Assembly: GCA_964551135.1 (NCBI GenBank)
Contig: CAZKAT010000001.1
Coordinates: forward strand, 148,224 to 212,223
From: an uncultured Gammaproteobacteria bacterium
GTDB lineage: Bacteria > Cyanobacteriota > Vampirovibrionia > LMEP-6097
Reading direction: 5' to 3'
Length of the DNA stretch: 64,000 nt
Of the stretch, positions 15,397 through 52,647 are shown piece after piece. Within the stretch, counting starts at the first letter, position 1; each line of letters begins with the position of its first letter. The position numbers were made by a program, and so were the translations under genes. The notes beneath the pieces are model-generated. The model was not told the DNA's origin. It made no database searches and worked only from the letters and a program-made list of their open reading frames with translations.

Positions 15397-17217
15397 GTGC
15401 TTAATTTAATTAATAACAAAAACAAGAAATCACAAGTTCAGTTAGTTTCTGAATATGATTTTTATTCCTTTACTGAGTCAGTTCATTATCATGCTCATAA
15501 ACTTTTAGGTGTAACGGAGAAGATTATTAATAGAGAGCGCGGTATTTTATTTACGCTTTGGGCTCCTCGGGCTAAAGCTGTAAGTGTTGTAGGAGATTTT
15601 AATAACTGGCGTATCAATGCTAATCCAATGCAACGAGCTACAACTAAGCAGGATAATGCAACTAAGGGCTATATCAATGCTGTGGGTGATGGTCTCTGGA
15701 CTTTATGGCTTGTGAATCTCAAACCAGATCTGGCTTATCAGTTTGCTATTCATTTAGATGATACTAAGATTGAGTATATTAATGATCCTTTTGCTAAACA
15801 ATTACAGTTTGTATCTAGTGGGAATGTTTATTCTTCACAACCAAAAAGATTAGCTTCGATATTTAATTATAGTGAATATTCATGGTCTGATCAGGATTGG
15901 ATTAAGAGGCGTGAAGCTGATGAGCTTTCCATTAAGCCCATATCAATATTAGATTTTGATTTTTCTAGTAAGCAAACCTCCTTGGAGACTTATCAGGGTT
16001 TAGCAAAATCTATAGTCAAACAAGCTCAGGATGGAAGTTTCACTCATGTTTCATTCAGCTCTTTAATTGAAGAAATTATAGATTTAACAGATTCCATTAA
16101 TAATATTATTAAAGACTATTATTATTTCGCTGCTAAGTCTATTCATGGTGATCCTCAAGACCTCAAATGTTTAGTAGATTATTTACATGCTAATAATATT
16201 GGAATAGTTTTAGAGTTACCATTCTTTGATAAAAGAATCGACTATAATCGCAAAACTAGTACTAATATTTTGCTGTCTAGTGCCATATATTGGCTAGAAG
16301 AATTTCATATTGATGGTTTGAAATTTACTACTAGAGCGAATGACGCCAGCAAAGTTATTAGTTATAAAAATGATGATGTGATTGATTTTATTAAAGTATT
16401 GAATGAATCAATTCATTCTAGATCTAAAGGCGTGATTACTATTGTTGATGATGATAGTGGTATGCCAGGTATTTCTAAGCCTACATATTTAGCTGGTTTA
16501 GGTTTCAATATGAGTATTTCTAATAGTTTTATAAGCAGTCTCAATTCATTTGTTGAGCAAGATTCAATAGATACTCTTAGTTCTTCGTATAGTTTTGCAG
16601 AGAATCAAATTCTTAATTTTAAAGATCCTACTTTATCTAAGCTTGATATTAATTCCTTGAAAATATTCTTCGCTTATTTTTTTACTTATCCAGGTAAAAA
16701 AATAATTAATGCTGAATTACTGGATAATATTATTTTCTTAGCTCAAACACCTAATAATTTCTTAGAAGAATTCTTTTTTAGCAGCCCATGTAAGTTTTTA
16801 GGGCTTGATTTAACTAATGATGCGATTGATCTGATATCTTATATCCGTGATTTAAATGATATGTATGCTGAAGAAGAAGCTCTTTCGGGGACTGATTTTA
16901 AGGATACTTGCTTTGAATGGGTAGATTATGCTAACCAAGACCTGATAAGCTATTTACGTTGGTCAAGAGATTATAAGGATGTGATCTTAGTGGTGATTAA
17001 TTTAAGTAATAAGAATATCAATCATTGTTCTATAGGTGTGCCTAAGCCTGGTTTATATTTGCAAATTTTTAATAGTGATGCTATTCAATATTGCGGTTCT
17101 GGTTATGGCAATGATGATGGTTTATATAGTTCTCATATTCAAGCACATAACAGACCTTATAGCTTAGTGATGGATATCGCTGCAAGGTCAATTGCTATGT
17201 TTAAATTAAATGAATAA
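15397..17217 (+). CDS. GlgB-like (CBM48 + GH13) protein with degenerate catalytic motifs
   Basis: FTLWAPRAKAVSVVGDFNNW and FEWVD/FNSDA C-domain are present; RVDAV, AEEST and HDE are replaced. Confidence 0.8.
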   Translation: MLNLINNKNKKSQVQLVSEYDFYSFTESVHYHAHKLLGVTEKIINRERGILFTLWAPRAKAVSVVGDFNNWRINANPMQRATTKQDNATKGYINAVGDGLWTLWLVNLKPDLAYQFAIHLDDTKIEYINDPFAKQLQFVSSGNVYSSQPKRLASIFNYSEYSWSDQDWIKRREADELSIKPISILDFDFSSKQTSLETYQGLAKSIVKQAQDGSFTHVSFSSLIEEIIDLTDSINNIIKDYYYFAAKSIHGDPQDLKCLVDYLHANNIGIVLELPFFDKRIDYNRKTSTNILLSSAIYWLEEFHIDGLKFTTRANDASKVISYKNDDVIDFIKVLNESIHSRSKGVITIVDDDSGMPGISKPTYLAGLGFNMSISNSFISSLNSFVEQDSIDTLSSSYSFAENQILNFKDPTLSKLDINSLKIFFAYFFTYPGKKIINAELLDNIIFLAQTPNNFLEEFFFSSPCKFLGLDLTNDAIDLISYIRDLNDMYAEEEALSGTDFKDTCFEWVDYANQDLISYLRWSRDYKDVILVVINLSNKNINHCSIGVPKPGLYLQIFNSDAIQYCGSGYGNDDGLYSSHIQAHNRPYSLVMDIAARSIAMFKLNE

Positions 17218-19444
17218 CAATTCAAAAATCCTTCACTATTCGTTACTTTCGCTAATTATGATTATTGGTGTTGTTACACTAACTGCTTTACTAAGTGTGA
17301 GATCTTGGTATAAACCTAGTATTAAGCTCAACGAACCTAGTCCAGTAACAATTATTCTGGATAAAGATGTAGAAGTAATAGATAGAATTGCAACTAATGA
17401 AGCTAAAGAAAAAGCTCGTTTAACTGCTCTTCGATACGCTGGTGATAAGGATATACTCGAAGTAGACCAGACGGCAATGAAAACTAATATGGATAATCTA
17501 AAATTCATAGTTCACTTTGTCAGAGATGAAATTAGTTTTAGTAAGCCCTATCCAGATCCAATTAATCCTAAAGTTAGCTTAGAGACTCAGCTTTATCTAG
17601 TTAATATTGATGATGCCAAGTTTAATCAAGTAATTTTAAGTACTAATTTATCTGAATTGATTGATGATCCTAATAAGGTAATAGAGATTTATGCTTTAAC
17701 AGAGATAGAGAAGAAGTTATTTTTTAAAACCTTAGCTGAAGAACGTGAAAAGAAGAAAAAAATTGAAGAAGAGAAAGCTGCGTTAGGTAAGCCATTCTTT
17801 GAAACTATTAAACGTGTAAATTATGAAAGTCTTTTTGTGAAAACTTTTGCAATACAAAAAAAATTGTTAGATTTGGGTTATGTAAGAGGACTCTCAAGAG
17901 CCAAAATTCATGAAAATATTAAAATCTTATATCCAGGATTAAGCTATGTGGAGCTGAGTTTGATTGAGAAATTAATAGATAGATCTACTTTCCCTAATAT
18001 GGAAATAGATTGGAAGAAACTAAGGGATATTGAGAAAGAGGCTATGAATGCTGTTCCGCCAGTGATGATTCAGCTTAAACAGGGGTCTTTGATAGCATCA
18101 AAGGGTAGGACTGTAGATTTAGAGAGTTTCTATTATTTGAGTGATTTAGACATGTTGAATGCAGAGACAGATCAGAATGAAATCTCTAATAATTTTGTAC
18201 TGATTACTTGTGCAGTTTTACTTATAGTATTGTTTAATCTTATTACTAAGTTCAGAAATTATTCTATTCAGCAAGTAATAATGATGTTCCTTATACCTAT
18301 TGCAGCATCTGCGATTATTGCACCAATTGCGATTTGGGGTGTTAACAAATTGCCACTAGTGCCACTTGCAGCAGTTTCCATATTGATGACAATATTTTAT
18401 TCCCCAAGCATGGCAGCGATTGTAATTCTATTAATGAGTTTCTTTATGGCTAAAACAGTTGACATGAATTTTTGGCAAGTATTGCCACAGTTTATTGGTT
18501 CTATGTATGCAATATTTCTTGTCAGGAAAGTGCATCAGCGAGAGGATCTTACTAATGCAGGTACGCAGATTGCTATAGTACAAGTGGTCGTTTTTCTGTT
18601 GACAGTGATGCTTGCAGTGGAAGATTTTGAGGTGACTACAGTTCTGATTATTGCTTGTTTCTATGCTATTAGTGCTGTCGCTTCGGGATTTATTTCACTT
18701 GCTGCATTACCTTACTTTGAATCAGGACTTAAGTTATTGACCCCATTTAAGCTAGCAGAGCTTGCTAATCCTAATCAACCTTTACTGAAGAAGCTTAAAG
18801 AAATGGCTCCAGGGACTTACGCTCATTCTATGAGTGTTTCTAGATTATCCGAAGAAGCTGGAGCTGTGTTAGGACTTAATACTGATCTGATTCGTGTGGG
18901 ACTACTTTATCATGATGTGGGCAAGATTTATGCTCCTGATTATTTTATTGAAAATACTCTCGGTAAACCCAATCCCCATACCACTCTTGATGATCCCAAA
19001 AAATCAGCTGAAATAATTCTGGGTCATATACCTGAGGGTATTAAACTTGCTAGGAAATATAATTTACCGCAAGAGATTGCTGATTTTATTCCAATGCATC
19101 AAGGTACTACTATTACGAATTACTTTTATTATATTGCAGTGGAGAAATATGGTAAGAAAAACGTTGATCCTGAAGACTATCGTTATCCTGGTCCTAGACC
19201 TAATACTAAGGAGACTGGAGTTGCTATGCTTGCTGATAGTACTGAAGCTGCATTGAGAAGTATTAAGGATATAGCTGATGAGAAACAGGCTAGTGAAATG
19301 ATTTATAAAATTATTAATGCAAGGATCGATGAAGGTGAGCTTTCTAATACCGGGCTTACTAGGTCTGATCTGGATAAAGTTGCTAATTCCTTCTTGAATA
19401 TTTGGCGTTCACAGAATCATGAAAGAGTTAAGTATCCTAGCTAG
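17210..19444 (+). CDS. 7TM-HD phosphohydrolase (PgpH-like cyclic-di-AMP phosphodiesterase family)
   Basis: N-terminal TM, large extracytoplasmic domain, about 7 TM, APGTYAHS, YHDVGK, YPGPRP, LADS.EAA. Confidence 0.85.
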   Translation: MNNNSKILHYSLLSLIMIIGVVTLTALLSVRSWYKPSIKLNEPSPVTIILDKDVEVIDRIATNEAKEKARLTALRYAGDKDILEVDQTAMKTNMDNLKFIVHFVRDEISFSKPYPDPINPKVSLETQLYLVNIDDAKFNQVILSTNLSELIDDPNKVIEIYALTEIEKKLFFKTLAEEREKKKKIEEEKAALGKPFFETIKRVNYESLFVKTFAIQKKLLDLGYVRGLSRAKIHENIKILYPGLSYVELSLIEKLIDRSTFPNMEIDWKKLRDIEKEAMNAVPPVMIQLKQGSLIASKGRTVDLESFYYLSDLDMLNAETDQNEISNNFVLITCAVLLIVLFNLITKFRNYSIQQVIMMFLIPIAASAIIAPIAIWGVNKLPLVPLAAVSILMTIFYSPSMAAIVILLMSFFMAKTVDMNFWQVLPQFIGSMYAIFLVRKVHQREDLTNAGTQIAIVQVVVFLLTVMLAVEDFEVTTVLIIACFYAISAVASGFISLAALPYFESGLKLLTPFKLAELANPNQPLLKKLKEMAPGTYAHSMSVSRLSEEAGAVLGLNTDLIRVGLLYHDVGKIYAPDYFIENTLGKPNPHTTLDDPKKSAEIILGHIPEGIKLARKYNLPQEIADFIPMHQGTTITNYFYYIAVEKYGKKNVDPEDYRYPGPRPNTKETGVAMLADSTEAALRSIKDIADEKQASEMIYKIINARIDEGELSNTGLTRSDLDKVANSFLNIWRSQNHERVKYPS

Positions 19445-19447
19445 GTA

Positions 19448-19577
19448 TGCTATTATTATGTCCAGACCTCTTTCGAAACCGTAGGTTTCGGATTAGAGGT
19501 CTGATAAAAAGATAGCGACCGTGCGGGACGCACGTGTCGCCCTAAGAGAATTCTTAGGTTTCAAAGGGAATATTATT
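19448..19577 (+). promoter_or_regulatory. Extended -10 promoter and structured ~115-nt leader of glmS
   Basis: TGC-TATTAT at 19448-19456, followed by three consecutive hairpins before GTG 19578. Confidence 0.5.
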
Positions 19578-21506
19578 GTGTGTGGAATTATTGCTTACAT
19601 AGGTAATAAAAATGCTAAAGATATACTAATTCACGGACTCAGGTCACTAGAGTATCGTGGTTATGATTCTGCTGGTATTGCCTTGCTTTCTGATAGCACT
19701 ATTGAGATAGTTAAGTCTCAGGGTAAGATCAGTAATTTAGAAGAGAAGATTATAGCTGCAAGTAAGCAAACTGCTATAGCTTCTAATATCGATAGGGAAA
19801 ATCCATCCAGTAAATTTAGTTCTTTAGTTAATGAAAGATTAGCTAAAGCTATCGACACTAGTTCTTGTGGTATCGGGCATACACGCTGGGCTACTCATGG
19901 AGTGCCTAATGATATCAATGCTCATCCGCATCAAGATTCAAGTCTAAGTATTGCTCTAGTGCATAACGGCATTATTAAAAACTACCTTAGTCTTAAACAA
20001 GAATTAGAAGCAGAGGGTGTGGAGTTTAGATCTGACACAGATACGGAAGTGATTGCACAGCTTTTTGCAAAGAATAGAAATAACAGTGAAAATGATTTAA
20101 GTGCTTTAAGGAAAACCATCACTAGGCTTGATGGTAGTTATGCTCTAGCAATTCTTATTAGTAATGAGCGTAAGATTCTTGTTGCTAAAAACCAGTCACC
20201 ATTAGTGATTGGTGTTGCTAATGGCGAGAACTATATAGCAAGTGATAGTAGTACGGTTTTACAATATACTGACAAGATACTTAAACTACAGGATATGCAA
20301 GTTGCAGAAGTGACAGCGACTGATATTAAGATAGAAAATGCTAATGGTACTCAAGCCAAGATAGAAATTCATCAATCTGTACAGTCAGCATCGATACTTG
20401 AGAAAGGACCTTATAAGCATTTTTTACTTAAGGAGATCAATGAACAGCCTGCGGTAACTAGTCTAATGTTAGATCAATGTATCCATGATCTGACTAAGCC
20501 TATTACTGGTTTTGAGAATTTGGATATTAATTTTAAAACTATCGATAGAATACTCTTCACTGCTTGCGGTTCTGCTTACCATGCAGCTTTACTGGGTAAG
20601 ACTCTAATAGAGTTATGGGCTAAGATTCCCGTAGAAGTTACTATCGCAAGCGAATTTTGTACTATGCCAGCATTAGTGACTGGTAAAGATCTAGTGATAG
20701 GTATTAGTCAATCAGGTGAGACTGCTGATACTCTTGCTGCAATCAAAAATGCTAAGGCAGCGGGTGCTAAGGTTATGGCTATCACTAATAAGGTTGATTC
20801 TGCTATTTATGATTTATGCAAGCCTAATAATTATGTAACTCCTGCCGGGATAGAGGTGTCTGTAGCTTCTACTAAAGCATTTACTTCACAAGTTTTAGCA
20901 TTATACCTGCTAGCAATTAAGATTGCGGAAGATAAGCTAGGAGCAGATTTGAGTCATGCTAAGCGTGAATTGAGATCTTTGCCATTAATTATTGATCAAG
21001 TGATAGAGCGAGCAGATACTTATCATAAGCAATTCTTGAAATATTCTAATTACAGAGACTTCTTGTTTCTGAGTAGAGGAGTGAATTATCCTATAGCCTT
21101 AGAAGGTGCACTTAAGCTTAAGGAGCTTAGTTATATTCATGCTACTGGTTATCCTAGTGGTGAGATGAAACATGGTCCTATAGCCATACTTGATCAGAAC
21201 GTTCCGGTCTTAAGCATTGCTATTAATGGCGAGACTGAGTTAGAACAAATTGTTTATAAGAAGACCCTAAGTAATGCGGAAGAAGCTAGGGCACGTATGT
21301 CACCTTCTATAGTGATAGCTTGTGATGATAATAATGATGTGTCAGGAGTATTTGATGAAGTAATCCGCATTCCTAATATCAGTCAGCTTTATAGCCCTAT
21401 CATAGCCACCGTTCCATTACAGTTCCTTGCATACTATATTGCTGAAGATTTAGGTAAGGATGTTGATCAGCCACGCAATTTAGCGAAGTCAGTAACGGTG
21501 GAATAG
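19578..21506 (+). CDS. glmS: Glutamine-fructose-6-phosphate aminotransferase; start reassigned to GTG 19578
   Basis: MCGII N-terminal nucleophile, LEYRGYDSAG, GHTRWATHG, SQSGETADT, PRNLAKSVTVE. Confidence 0.96.
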   Translation: MCGIIAYIGNKNAKDILIHGLRSLEYRGYDSAGIALLSDSTIEIVKSQGKISNLEEKIIAASKQTAIASNIDRENPSSKFSSLVNERLAKAIDTSSCGIGHTRWATHGVPNDINAHPHQDSSLSIALVHNGIIKNYLSLKQELEAEGVEFRSDTDTEVIAQLFAKNRNNSENDLSALRKTITRLDGSYALAILISNERKILVAKNQSPLVIGVANGENYIASDSSTVLQYTDKILKLQDMQVAEVTATDIKIENANGTQAKIEIHQSVQSASILEKGPYKHFLLKEINEQPAVTSLMLDQCIHDLTKPITGFENLDINFKTIDRILFTACGSAYHAALLGKTLIELWAKIPVEVTIASEFCTMPALVTGKDLVIGISQSGETADTLAAIKNAKAAGAKVMAITNKVDSAIYDLCKPNNYVTPAGIEVSVASTKAFTSQVLALYLLAIKIAEDKLGADLSHAKRELRSLPLIIDQVIERADTYHKQFLKYSNYRDFLFLSRGVNYPIALEGALKLKELSYIHATGYPSGEMKHGPIAILDQNVPVLSIAINGETELEQIVYKKTLSNAEEARARMSPSIVIACDDNNDVSGVFDEVIRIPNISQLYSPIIATVPLQFLAYYIAEDLGKDVDQPRNLAKSVTVE

Positions 21507-51342: not shown

Positions 51343-52647
51343 GTGCTTAAGTTGGATGATAAACCCATAATTATTATTGGCGGCGGCCCTGGTGGTTACT
51401 CCGCTGCCTTAGAAATCAGAAAAAGATTTTTAGAACAAAAAATTATTCTTATAGAAAAAAACAAACTTGGCGGTGCTTGCTTGCATGTTGGTTGCATCCC
51501 AAGTAAACAATTACACTCTATAGAAAATCTAGAAGATTTCTCTAAATTAATCACTAAGAATAAAATGATCTTAGAGAAAGGGATTGCAAGTGAGTTGAAA
51601 GCAGCAAATATAGAACTTATATTTGATGAAGCGATCCTACCTGCAAAGTCCCATCTGCTGCGTTATGCGAGCCCCTCGCCATCCTCATTGACGACTCAGT
51701 CAACTCCGGTGTCTCGGGACTCGCAAGCCTTGCATCTGGGAGCTTTTCAGGCAGGATCAGAATTAGAAGGAGATAAGATTATACTTAGTAATGGTACTGA
51801 GTTAGAGTATTGTCATTTGGTAATAGCTACTGGCTCTAAACCCCGCACTCTGAAAGAGTTTCCGCAAGCTTTAACTAGTGATAGCTTTTTCTCTGATGAG
51901 AATTTAACTAAAGGATTTGCTGATAAGTATTGTTTCATTGGTGGCGGTTATATTGGTATAGAACTAGCATCTATGCTTGTGCAGCATGGCAAGCAAGTGC
52001 GAATTATAGAAGTCCAGGATAATATATTATCCTTTTTGGATAAGGACATTCATTCCAAACTTTTACAATCACTTAAATCTCAAAAAATAAAAATTGAAAC
52101 TGGTGTGAAAGATTTAAGTAGCATCATCTTAGAAGAAGGCGAAGAAGTTTTTGTTTCTGTAGGACGTGAACCTATTACTACAGCCACCCAGCCACCCAGC
52201 CACTCAGTCACTTATATTGGTGATGCCTCACAAGGAATAGCTCTTGCTCATTATGCCTATGCGCAGGCAAAACAGCTTGCTGCTAAGCTTGCTGGTGAAG
52301 AATATGTAATTGATAAAACCAAAGTGCCTCTGGTAATTTTTACTCATCCAGAACTTGCGACTATTGGTTTAACTGAAGCGCAGGCAAGAGAGAAATATGG
52401 TGATGCTATCGAAACTAAAATTATTAACTGGGCTAGCAATGGTAAAGCGCGTGTCTCTGGTGCTGATCGGGGTATGACTAAATGGGTTATTTATAACGAT
52501 AAAGTTATAGGCTGTCATGTTATTGGTGAACATGCTACTGATTTGATCTCTATTGTGGTTCCGATTATTAATATGAATCCTTCTATTAGTAAAATGCAAA
52601 CCTGGATATATCCACATCCGACCCTAGGTGAGGTTTTTGCGTTATAA
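51343..52647 (+). CDS. lpdA: Compact dihydrolipoamide dehydrogenase carrying two repeat-derived segments
   Basis: GGGPGGY, GGACLHVGCIPSK, ATGSKP, GGGYIG.E, HPTLGE. Confidence 0.88.
   Translation: MLKLDDKPIIIIGGGPGGYSAALEIRKRFLEQKIILIEKNKLGGACLHVGCIPSKQLHSIENLEDFSKLITKNKMILEKGIASELKAANIELIFDEAILPAKSHLLRYASPSPSSLTTQSTPVSRDSQALHLGAFQAGSELEGDKIILSNGTELEYCHLVIATGSKPRTLKEFPQALTSDSFFSDENLTKGFADKYCFIGGGYIGIELASMLVQHGKQVRIIEVQDNILSFLDKDIHSKLLQSLKSQKIKIETGVKDLSSIILEEGEEVFVSVGREPITTATQPPSHSVTYIGDASQGIALAHYAYAQAKQLAAKLAGEEYVIDKTKVPLVIFTHPELATIGLTEAQAREKYGDAIETKIINWASNGKARVSGADRGMTKWVIYNDKVIGCHVIGEHATDLISIVVPIINMNPSISKMQTWIYPHPTLGEVFAL
51633..51758. mobile_element. 126-bp palindromic element inserted in frame in lpdA
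   Basis: Imperfect terminal IRs GATCCTACCTGCAAAG/CTTTTCAGGCAGGATC; removing it restores FDEAELEGDK. Confidence 0.85.
52181..52212 (+). repeat. Four octamers (CAGCCACC x2, CAGCCACT, CAGTCACT) inside lpdA
   Basis: Same unit as the arms at 32.8 and 46.8 kb; read as TATQPPSHSVT. Confidence 0.75.

Follow-up and report, generated by a model that had tools for sequence, protein, structure and literature searches.

A Probable IS5-Derived MITE Forms the Predicted 5′ Leader of glmS in an Uncultured Relative of Cyanobacteria

Introduction

The closest described counterparts of the element reported here are the Correia elements (CREE/NEMIS) of Neisseria, MITEs with terminal inverted repeats that lie mostly just upstream of genes, are co-transcribed with them, form hairpins in the mRNA and alter the expression of their neighbors (PMC10969869, section 4.1). 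The effects of prokaryotic MITEs on expression involve promoters, IHF sites, RNase cleavage, gene inactivation and small RNAs, and possibly terminators or riboswitches; the donation of a Shine-Dalgarno (SD)-bearing leader to a leaderless gene is not among the MITE effects given in that account (PMC10969869, section 4.1).

Here we describe a ~115-nt element that constitutes the entire predicted 5′ UTR of glmS in an uncultured member of a Melainabacteria family. Like the Correia elements, it falls among MITEs of ~100–150 nt with terminal inverted repeats, a probable TA target and hairpins in the mRNA, which on the glmS side are predicted. However, the Correia elements are unrelated to it in sequence and exert their effects by means of internal promoters, an IHF site and cleavage by RNase III, whereas the glmS element has no internal promoter by consensus scan and would instead donate an SD motif and a 5′-terminal hairpin to a leaderless gene. 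The modular build of the BOX elements of Streptococcus pneumoniae is also seen in the family described here, in which hairpin 1 occurs alone or joined to further modules, but the sequences are unrelated, and BOX elements are not known to have IS-type inverted repeats. As with the RPE of Rickettsia and intragenic ERIC/RU, other members of the family lie in frame and in sense within genes. In contrast, the glmS copy is intergenic and noncoding, has by reading of its sequence stop codons in all three sense frames, as does its subfamily, and shows no homology to RPEs. With the glmS ribozyme (RF00234) and with GlmY/GlmZ the element has gene context alone in common: it matches no model, is not conserved at glmS and contains no conserved core resembling a ligand pocket.

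Results

The window, by which we mean the whole 64,000-nucleotide stretch of DNA that was analyzed, belongs to a genome (G000) of 2.25 Mb in 23 contigs that is 92% complete. G001 and G002 are its congeners in genus g1, and G005, G010, G013 and G017 represent other genera of the same Melainabacteria family. The features of the glmS locus, including the predicted fold of the leader, are as follows.

17210–19444, + strand: upstream gene, outside the element, for a 744-aa membrane HDIG-domain protein (PgpH-like; HDIG domain match)
19448–19456, + strand: extended −10 box of glmS, TGCTATTAT (predicted promoter; TGn-TAnnnT box also in relatives)
19463–19577, + strand: MITE copy of ~115 nt, the entire predicted 5′ UTR of glmS (covariance model match)
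19463–19503, + strand: hairpin 1, a nested stem of 9+8 bp in which the left terminal inverted repeat is paired with an internal copy of the right repeat
19504–19514, + strand: A-rich single-stranded linker, kept in all subfamilies (alignments)
19515–19540, + strand: hairpin 2, GC-rich, 11 bp with one conserved bulge
19541–19558, + strand: hairpin 3, AU-rich and variable, 7 bp
19559–19577, + strand: decayed right terminal inverted repeat (left and right ends complementary and covarying)
19564–19569, + strand: SD motif AAGGGA, purine-rich, 8 nt ahead of the start codon and within the right terminal repeat
19578–21506, + strand: glmS, 642 aa, with a GTG start followed by the catalytic Cys codon (NF001484)

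The predicted folding energy of a 146-nt stretch containing the leader is −55.4 kcal/mol, compared with −33.6 ± 4.0 kcal/mol for 200 dinucleotide shuffles (z = −5.44), none of which was as good, and all features of the three-hairpin leader proposed by an earlier, sequence-only reading of this DNA were found where that reading had placed them. The predicted transcription start site (TSS) of glmS is the first base of hairpin 1, and in the predicted fold the SD region is mostly unpaired while hairpin 1 is closed. The internal copy of the right end, located inside hairpin 1, is better preserved than the right end proper.

The glmS product aligns over residues 1–642 to positions 1–601 of the NCBIfam GlmS profile NF001484 with a score of 715 bits. 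The GTG at 19578 is in frame with the listed ORF at 19521–21506 and, because the catalytic Cys codon comes next and the profile aligns from residue 1, is the certain start of glmS. The AAGGGA motif that had been taken as the SD is in place, but the gene does not begin at 19521, the start of the listed ORF. Window positions 19521–19577 are open in the glmS frame from a GTG within hairpin 2, and a start there would add 19 residues; initiation at 19521 is presumably unused, since it would bury the N-terminal catalytic Cys. Because the element is open in this frame from the hairpin-2 GTG, ORF callers may overextend glmS. Searches against Rfam gave no match at E values up to 10 in positions 19000–20000 and none at the gathering score in the whole window. 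As no Rfam family matches at a useful threshold, the leader is neither a glmS ribozyme nor GlmY/GlmZ, in agreement with the earlier judgment that it is not a canonical glmS ribozyme.

GlmS of G000 is 95% identical to that of G001 and 94% identical to that of G002 (first 274 residues). The element is absent ahead of glmS in all five relatives compared (G001, G002, G005, G010 and G013). In G001 only ~20 nt separate the upstream stop codon from glmS, and in G002 the spacer is longer and carries the same −10 box; the distance from the end of the extended −10 box to the glmS ATG is 8 nt in each of the two. A TGn-TAnnnT box precedes glmS in G001, G002, G005 and G010, with 7–9 nt from the end of the box to the ATG, and a plain −10 box lies 13 nt from the ATG of G013 glmS. 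None of the five relatives has an SD ahead of glmS, and all five orthologues begin ATG-TGT/TGC (Met-Cys). Because the relatives have a −10 box near the ATG and no SD, glmS appears to have been ancestrally leaderless or nearly so. The presence of the same extended −10 box ahead of glmS in relatives supports the earlier promoter and TSS call (TGC-TATTAT, TSS near 19463) for this predicted promoter, and the box appears to predate the insertion. Comparison of these sites indicates that the glmS copy is a recent, species-specific insertion between the −10 box and the start codon.

Insertion polymorphism was found at eight loci in all: glmS, valS, folP, a pentapeptide-repeat gene, prmC, fur, htpG and one more. 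The G000 copies at valS, folP and the pentapeptide gene have empty counterparts in G001 and/or G002, and the G001 copies at prmC, the fur-family gene, htpG and a fourth locus have empty counterparts in G000. At htpG the empty site has a −35 box and, 18 nt on, a −10 box that is followed after 7 nt by the ATG; in the filled site the element lies precisely between the seventh nucleotide after the −10 box and the ATG. Start codons also differ between filled and empty sites, being GTG at glmS and valS and TTG at folP in G000, where the element is present, and ATG at the empty sites. At a fabG-like locus of G001, the empty-site comparison places the corresponding flanks 1.5 kb apart in G000.

G000 contains eight full copies of the element, including that at glmS; the seven others are 84–91% identical over 104–116 nt, and nhmmer adds a decayed ninth. 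These copies lie upstream of unrelated genes (glmS, valS, folP, the pentapeptide-repeat gene, fliR and three others). A covariance model built from 18 copies, with the three-hairpin structure specified by hand, matches the glmS copy with 123.4 bits (E = 3.7e-27), the sole copy in the window. With this model, 14 of the 30 family genomes and none of 121 genomes from ten other families of the class gave a match. By the same model there are 13 copies in G000, 9 and 7 in the congeners, 13 in G010 and 56–99 in G013, G017 and G005. When 80 cross-phylum stretches were tested, the three-hairpin composite was matched outside the Melainabacteria family only twice, in one lake bin; apart from these lake-bin matches, the interior of the element, made up of the linker and hairpins 2 and 3, is specific to a single Melainabacteria family.

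Among the three hairpins, hairpin 1 is the only one that is found free-standing elsewhere. In other genera (L013–L031; G004, G005, G009, G013, G016 and G018) it occurs alone, as a unit of ~45 nt, or fused to different hairpin modules. Sixteen copies lie in sense within ORFs, 14 of them in G005 and G017 and two in G000. The two in G000 are diverged, in-frame, sense-strand members within a UvrC-like ORF and an ArnT-like glycosyltransferase ORF (identities read from sequence), and each adds about 38–40 residues with a common basic peptide motif.

C8:79802–79914 and C3:159798–159916, − strand: intragenic diverged copies in G000 (L130, L131)

One full copy, at G000:C8:4550–4744 (L008 1422–1616), begins one base past the encoded CCA end of tRNA-Arg(CCT) and, given this distance, would be co-transcribed with the tRNA.

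The copies carry a strong signature of pairing. In an alignment of 93 copies, which was fitted to the covariance model so that its counts are biased towards structure, 87.5% of cells are paired and double changes are seen in 29 of 35 pairs (390 cells). In all 500 shuffles the pairing values stay below those observed, and sliding the partner column by 1–3 positions lowers the paired fraction to 31–41%. The inner stem of hairpin 1 is paired in 96.8% of cells, with compensatory changes in seven of its eight pairs, and hairpin 2 is paired in 96.3%, with compensatory changes in 9 of 11; each of these two stems shows several pair types. For hairpin 3, where the alignment is less certain, 72% of cells are paired and six of seven pairs have compensatory changes. 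The glmS copy itself contributes a compensatory change in the closing pair of hairpin 1, from T:A to C:G. Together, the aligned copies show that the three predicted stems are maintained by compensatory change and that selection acts on the predicted fold itself. There are about three times as many G·T as A·C mismatches on the sense strand (210 versus 67), an excess that weakly favors selection acting on that strand.

The 17-nt ends of the element are inverted repeats that match at 15 of 17 positions in the consensus of genus g1. Over the 93 copies the two ends are complementary in 81% of cells, and they covary among subfamilies. An exact 18-mer of the left end, TAGACCTCTTTCGAAACC, is present in more than 116 stretches from many phyla, a distribution that suggests recent cross-phylum spread of a parent IS5-family element. 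It frequently occurs as inverted pairs 46–380 nt apart and delimits short repeats in many phyla. Matches of the 18-mer in Caenarcanales give the assignment of the host to Melainabacteria indirect support. The organisms with 18-mer matches (L148–L227) are often intracellular or symbiotic, among them Wolbachia, Holosporaceae, Chlamydiae, Legionella, Coxiellaceae, Cardinium, Mycoavidus and Babeliales.

On a Competibacter contig (L226), inverted copies of the 18-mer bound a 930-bp insertion sequence (IS; 768–1698) with a two-frame transposase that matches NF033581 (IS5 family) with 76 and 117 bits over profile positions 3–134 and 139–283. This IS would fit the IS427-like subgroup of ISfinder (800–1000 bp, a duplication of 2–4 bp and two ORFs). 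The terminal 18 nt of the glmS element are identical to those of the Competibacter IS, but the element has no coding capacity and its interior is unrelated to that of the IS. It is the terminal inverted repeats, together with the same 18-mer bounding an IS5-family IS, that identify the element as a MITE. Nearly all copies, like the L226 IS, are bordered on either side by TA, which is inseparable from the repeat ends, and junctions in sister genomes are ~20% diverged; the insertion target of the glmS copy is probably a TA dinucleotide.

None of five draft MAGs of the lineage yielded an intact IS5-family partner; the one trace is a 72-residue C-terminal IS5 fragment, its end weakly similar, that G013 carries at the edge of a contig. 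In such assemblies insertion sequences are frequently missing. Two other transposases were considered as partners. The IS630-family transposase of G005, which is frameshifted and belongs to an IS at L133 937–2007 (G005:C5), was rejected because the inverted repeats of that IS, ~23 nt long, are unrelated to the MITE. An IS4-family transposase in a 2.3-kb interval of Competibacter (L161), located between two inverted end motifs, was likewise not adopted, the interval being taken as two separate copies of the end motif or as an unrelated IS. Literature searches on the end motif and on MITEs in Melainabacteria returned nothing relevant.

In genus g1, 20 of the 21 intergenic copies have a co-oriented gene downstream, compared with 27 co-oriented and 24 not co-oriented copies in other genera. 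At least seven of the g1 copies are independent insertions, each confirmed by an empty site, that separate the −10 box of a leaderless-looking gene from its start; they end 0–5 nt before the start codon and would supply the SD of the gene. On a rough gene annotation, a start is no more than 10 nt away for 10.7% of the TA dinucleotides between genes, which gives P ~0.005 for 7 of 21. That g1 copies are placed almost exclusively ahead of a gene and in its orientation is a hint that neutral insertion may not be the whole explanation. The right end of the g1 subfamily contains an SD-like purine run 6–9 nt from the end of the element, and the start-adjacent copies at valS and folP have drifted to a stronger SD; no SD was found in the right ends of copies from other genera.

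The G000 genome is rich in leaderless-looking genes. Among 453 ORFs with an unambiguous ATG, 208 (46%) have a TAnnnT box ending 5–10 nt upstream. These boxes form a sharp peak 6–9 nt before the start, and an SD-like 4-mer precedes 95 of the 453 (21%). Leaderless translation strongly prefers a 5′-terminal AUG, and the change from ATG to GTG or TTG at filled sites therefore fits SD-led initiation.

Discussion

Taken together, the leader of glmS is probably a non-autonomous MITE derived from an IS5-family IS that inserted downstream of the extended −10 box and ahead of the start codon in a formerly leaderless gene. As to what the element does at glmS, we infer the TSS, the use of the SD and a stabilizing effect. 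By inserting between the −10 box and the start codon, the MITE would have created the whole 5′ UTR of glmS. Transcription would still start ~7 nt past the old −10 box, and the mRNA would open with hairpin 1. Translation of glmS would now rely on the SD in the right end of the element, and this SD dependence would explain the drift of the start codon from ATG to GTG. Stem-loops at the 5′ end stabilize mRNAs generally, as in ompA and others, and the 5′-terminal hairpin probably shields glmS mRNA from decay that depends on the 5′ end. Nothing indicates that the leader senses GlcN6P or another ligand. A purely selfish element need not show the selection on the fold that we observe, and this counts against the explanation of the leader as a MITE insertion, which we nevertheless prefer.

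An extension of this explanation, which we put forward as a tentative and rather doubtful proposal, is that the g1 subfamily is a portable 5′ leader, either targeted to the TSS of leaderless genes or selectively fixed there, that converts leaderless genes to SD-dependent ones with a 5′ hairpin. The subfamily may in addition supply a switch operated by a factor, with the CU-rich 5′ arm of hairpin 1 pairing with the SD region. Were this proposal correct, a mobile element would be driving changes in the mode of translation initiation in a leaderless-rich lineage. The habit of the MITE family of building leaders for leaderless genes is testable and moderately interesting.

The same observations could reflect a dispersed riboregulator, that is, a 5′-leader module that was spread by transposition and then kept, in which a global factor (a protein, a small RNA or temperature) opens hairpin 1, whose CU-rich 5′ arm could then bind the SD-bearing right end and so silence the translation of all carriers. 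The co-oriented downstream gene of 20 of the 21 g1 intergenic copies, the start codons abutted by at least seven of them and the strong conservation of the stems and of the single-stranded linker are all as such a regulator would have them, and with the 3′ arm of hairpin 1 made unavailable, the predicted fold does have the 5′ arm paired to the SD region. However, this alternative fold is predicted to cost 14–20 kcal/mol, and in the glmS copy the pairing of the 5′ arm with the SD region is weak because the right end has decayed. Moreover, the carrier genes are functionally unrelated and differ between sister species, and copies of other genera show neither the orientation bias (27 versus 24) nor an SD in their right ends. 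We therefore regard the riboregulator as unlikely.

Still less probable is an element of the REP/REPIN type, whose single-stranded DNA hairpins would be handled by a RAYT-like tyrosine transposase, or a terminator or insulator. The number of Y1_Tnp genes, with two in G000, one in G001 and six each in G005, G017 and G013, roughly tracks the number of repeats, but none of the six Y1_Tnp genes examined (L142–L147) is flanked by the element or its hairpins, and the true terminal inverted repeats are those of a DDE-type IS5-family IS. These Y1_Tnp (IS200/RAYT-like) open frames are mostly about 300–320 aa; those in G000 are at C7:1002–1349 and C7:10404–10742. The sequence-only reading had offered stacked REP-like elements as its second possibility; it was right in that the repeat is dispersed and structured, but the repeat is a single composite MITE with terminal inverted repeats rather than a REP stack, and it is not associated with RAYT. 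With regard to termination, hairpin 2 is preceded by an A-run on the sense strand and followed by a T-run on the reverse strand, as a reverse-strand terminator would be, but a consensus scan finds no intrinsic terminator on either strand in positions 19250–19750, where the glmS copy lies. Both versions also have to contend with the location of g1 copies in 5′ regions and not at 3′ ends.

A metabolite-sensing leader specific to glmS, a functional analogue of the glmS ribozyme and the new cis-regulatory RNA that had first been suspected here, would account for the position ahead of glmS and for a stable, conserved fold, but it is scarcely credible and its distribution refutes it: no Rfam family matches, the element is missing from the orthologous site in all five relatives, and the same sequence and hairpins recur genome-wide before unrelated genes.

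The MITE explanation thus removes a false riboswitch candidate and documents an undescribed MITE family with an end sequence that is, letter for letter, common to many phyla. It also yields natural before-and-after pairs, in which a gene that is leaderless in one species has a structured, SD-bearing leader in its sister; three of these pairs start with ATG where the element is absent and with GTG or TTG where it is present. Such pairs are usable for studying the interconversion of leaderless and SD-led initiation, and they show mobile elements rewiring 5′ UTRs in as yet uncultivable relatives of cyanobacteria.

Two further repeats of G000 lie outside this family. An in-frame repeat in lpdA, at window positions 51633–51758, was considered as a family member and rejected; it represents a different family, because the covariance model does not match it and its fold differs. 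G000 also harbors a second family of ~110-nt repeats, which is far more abundant, with ~50 matches (L034, right flank 519–627).
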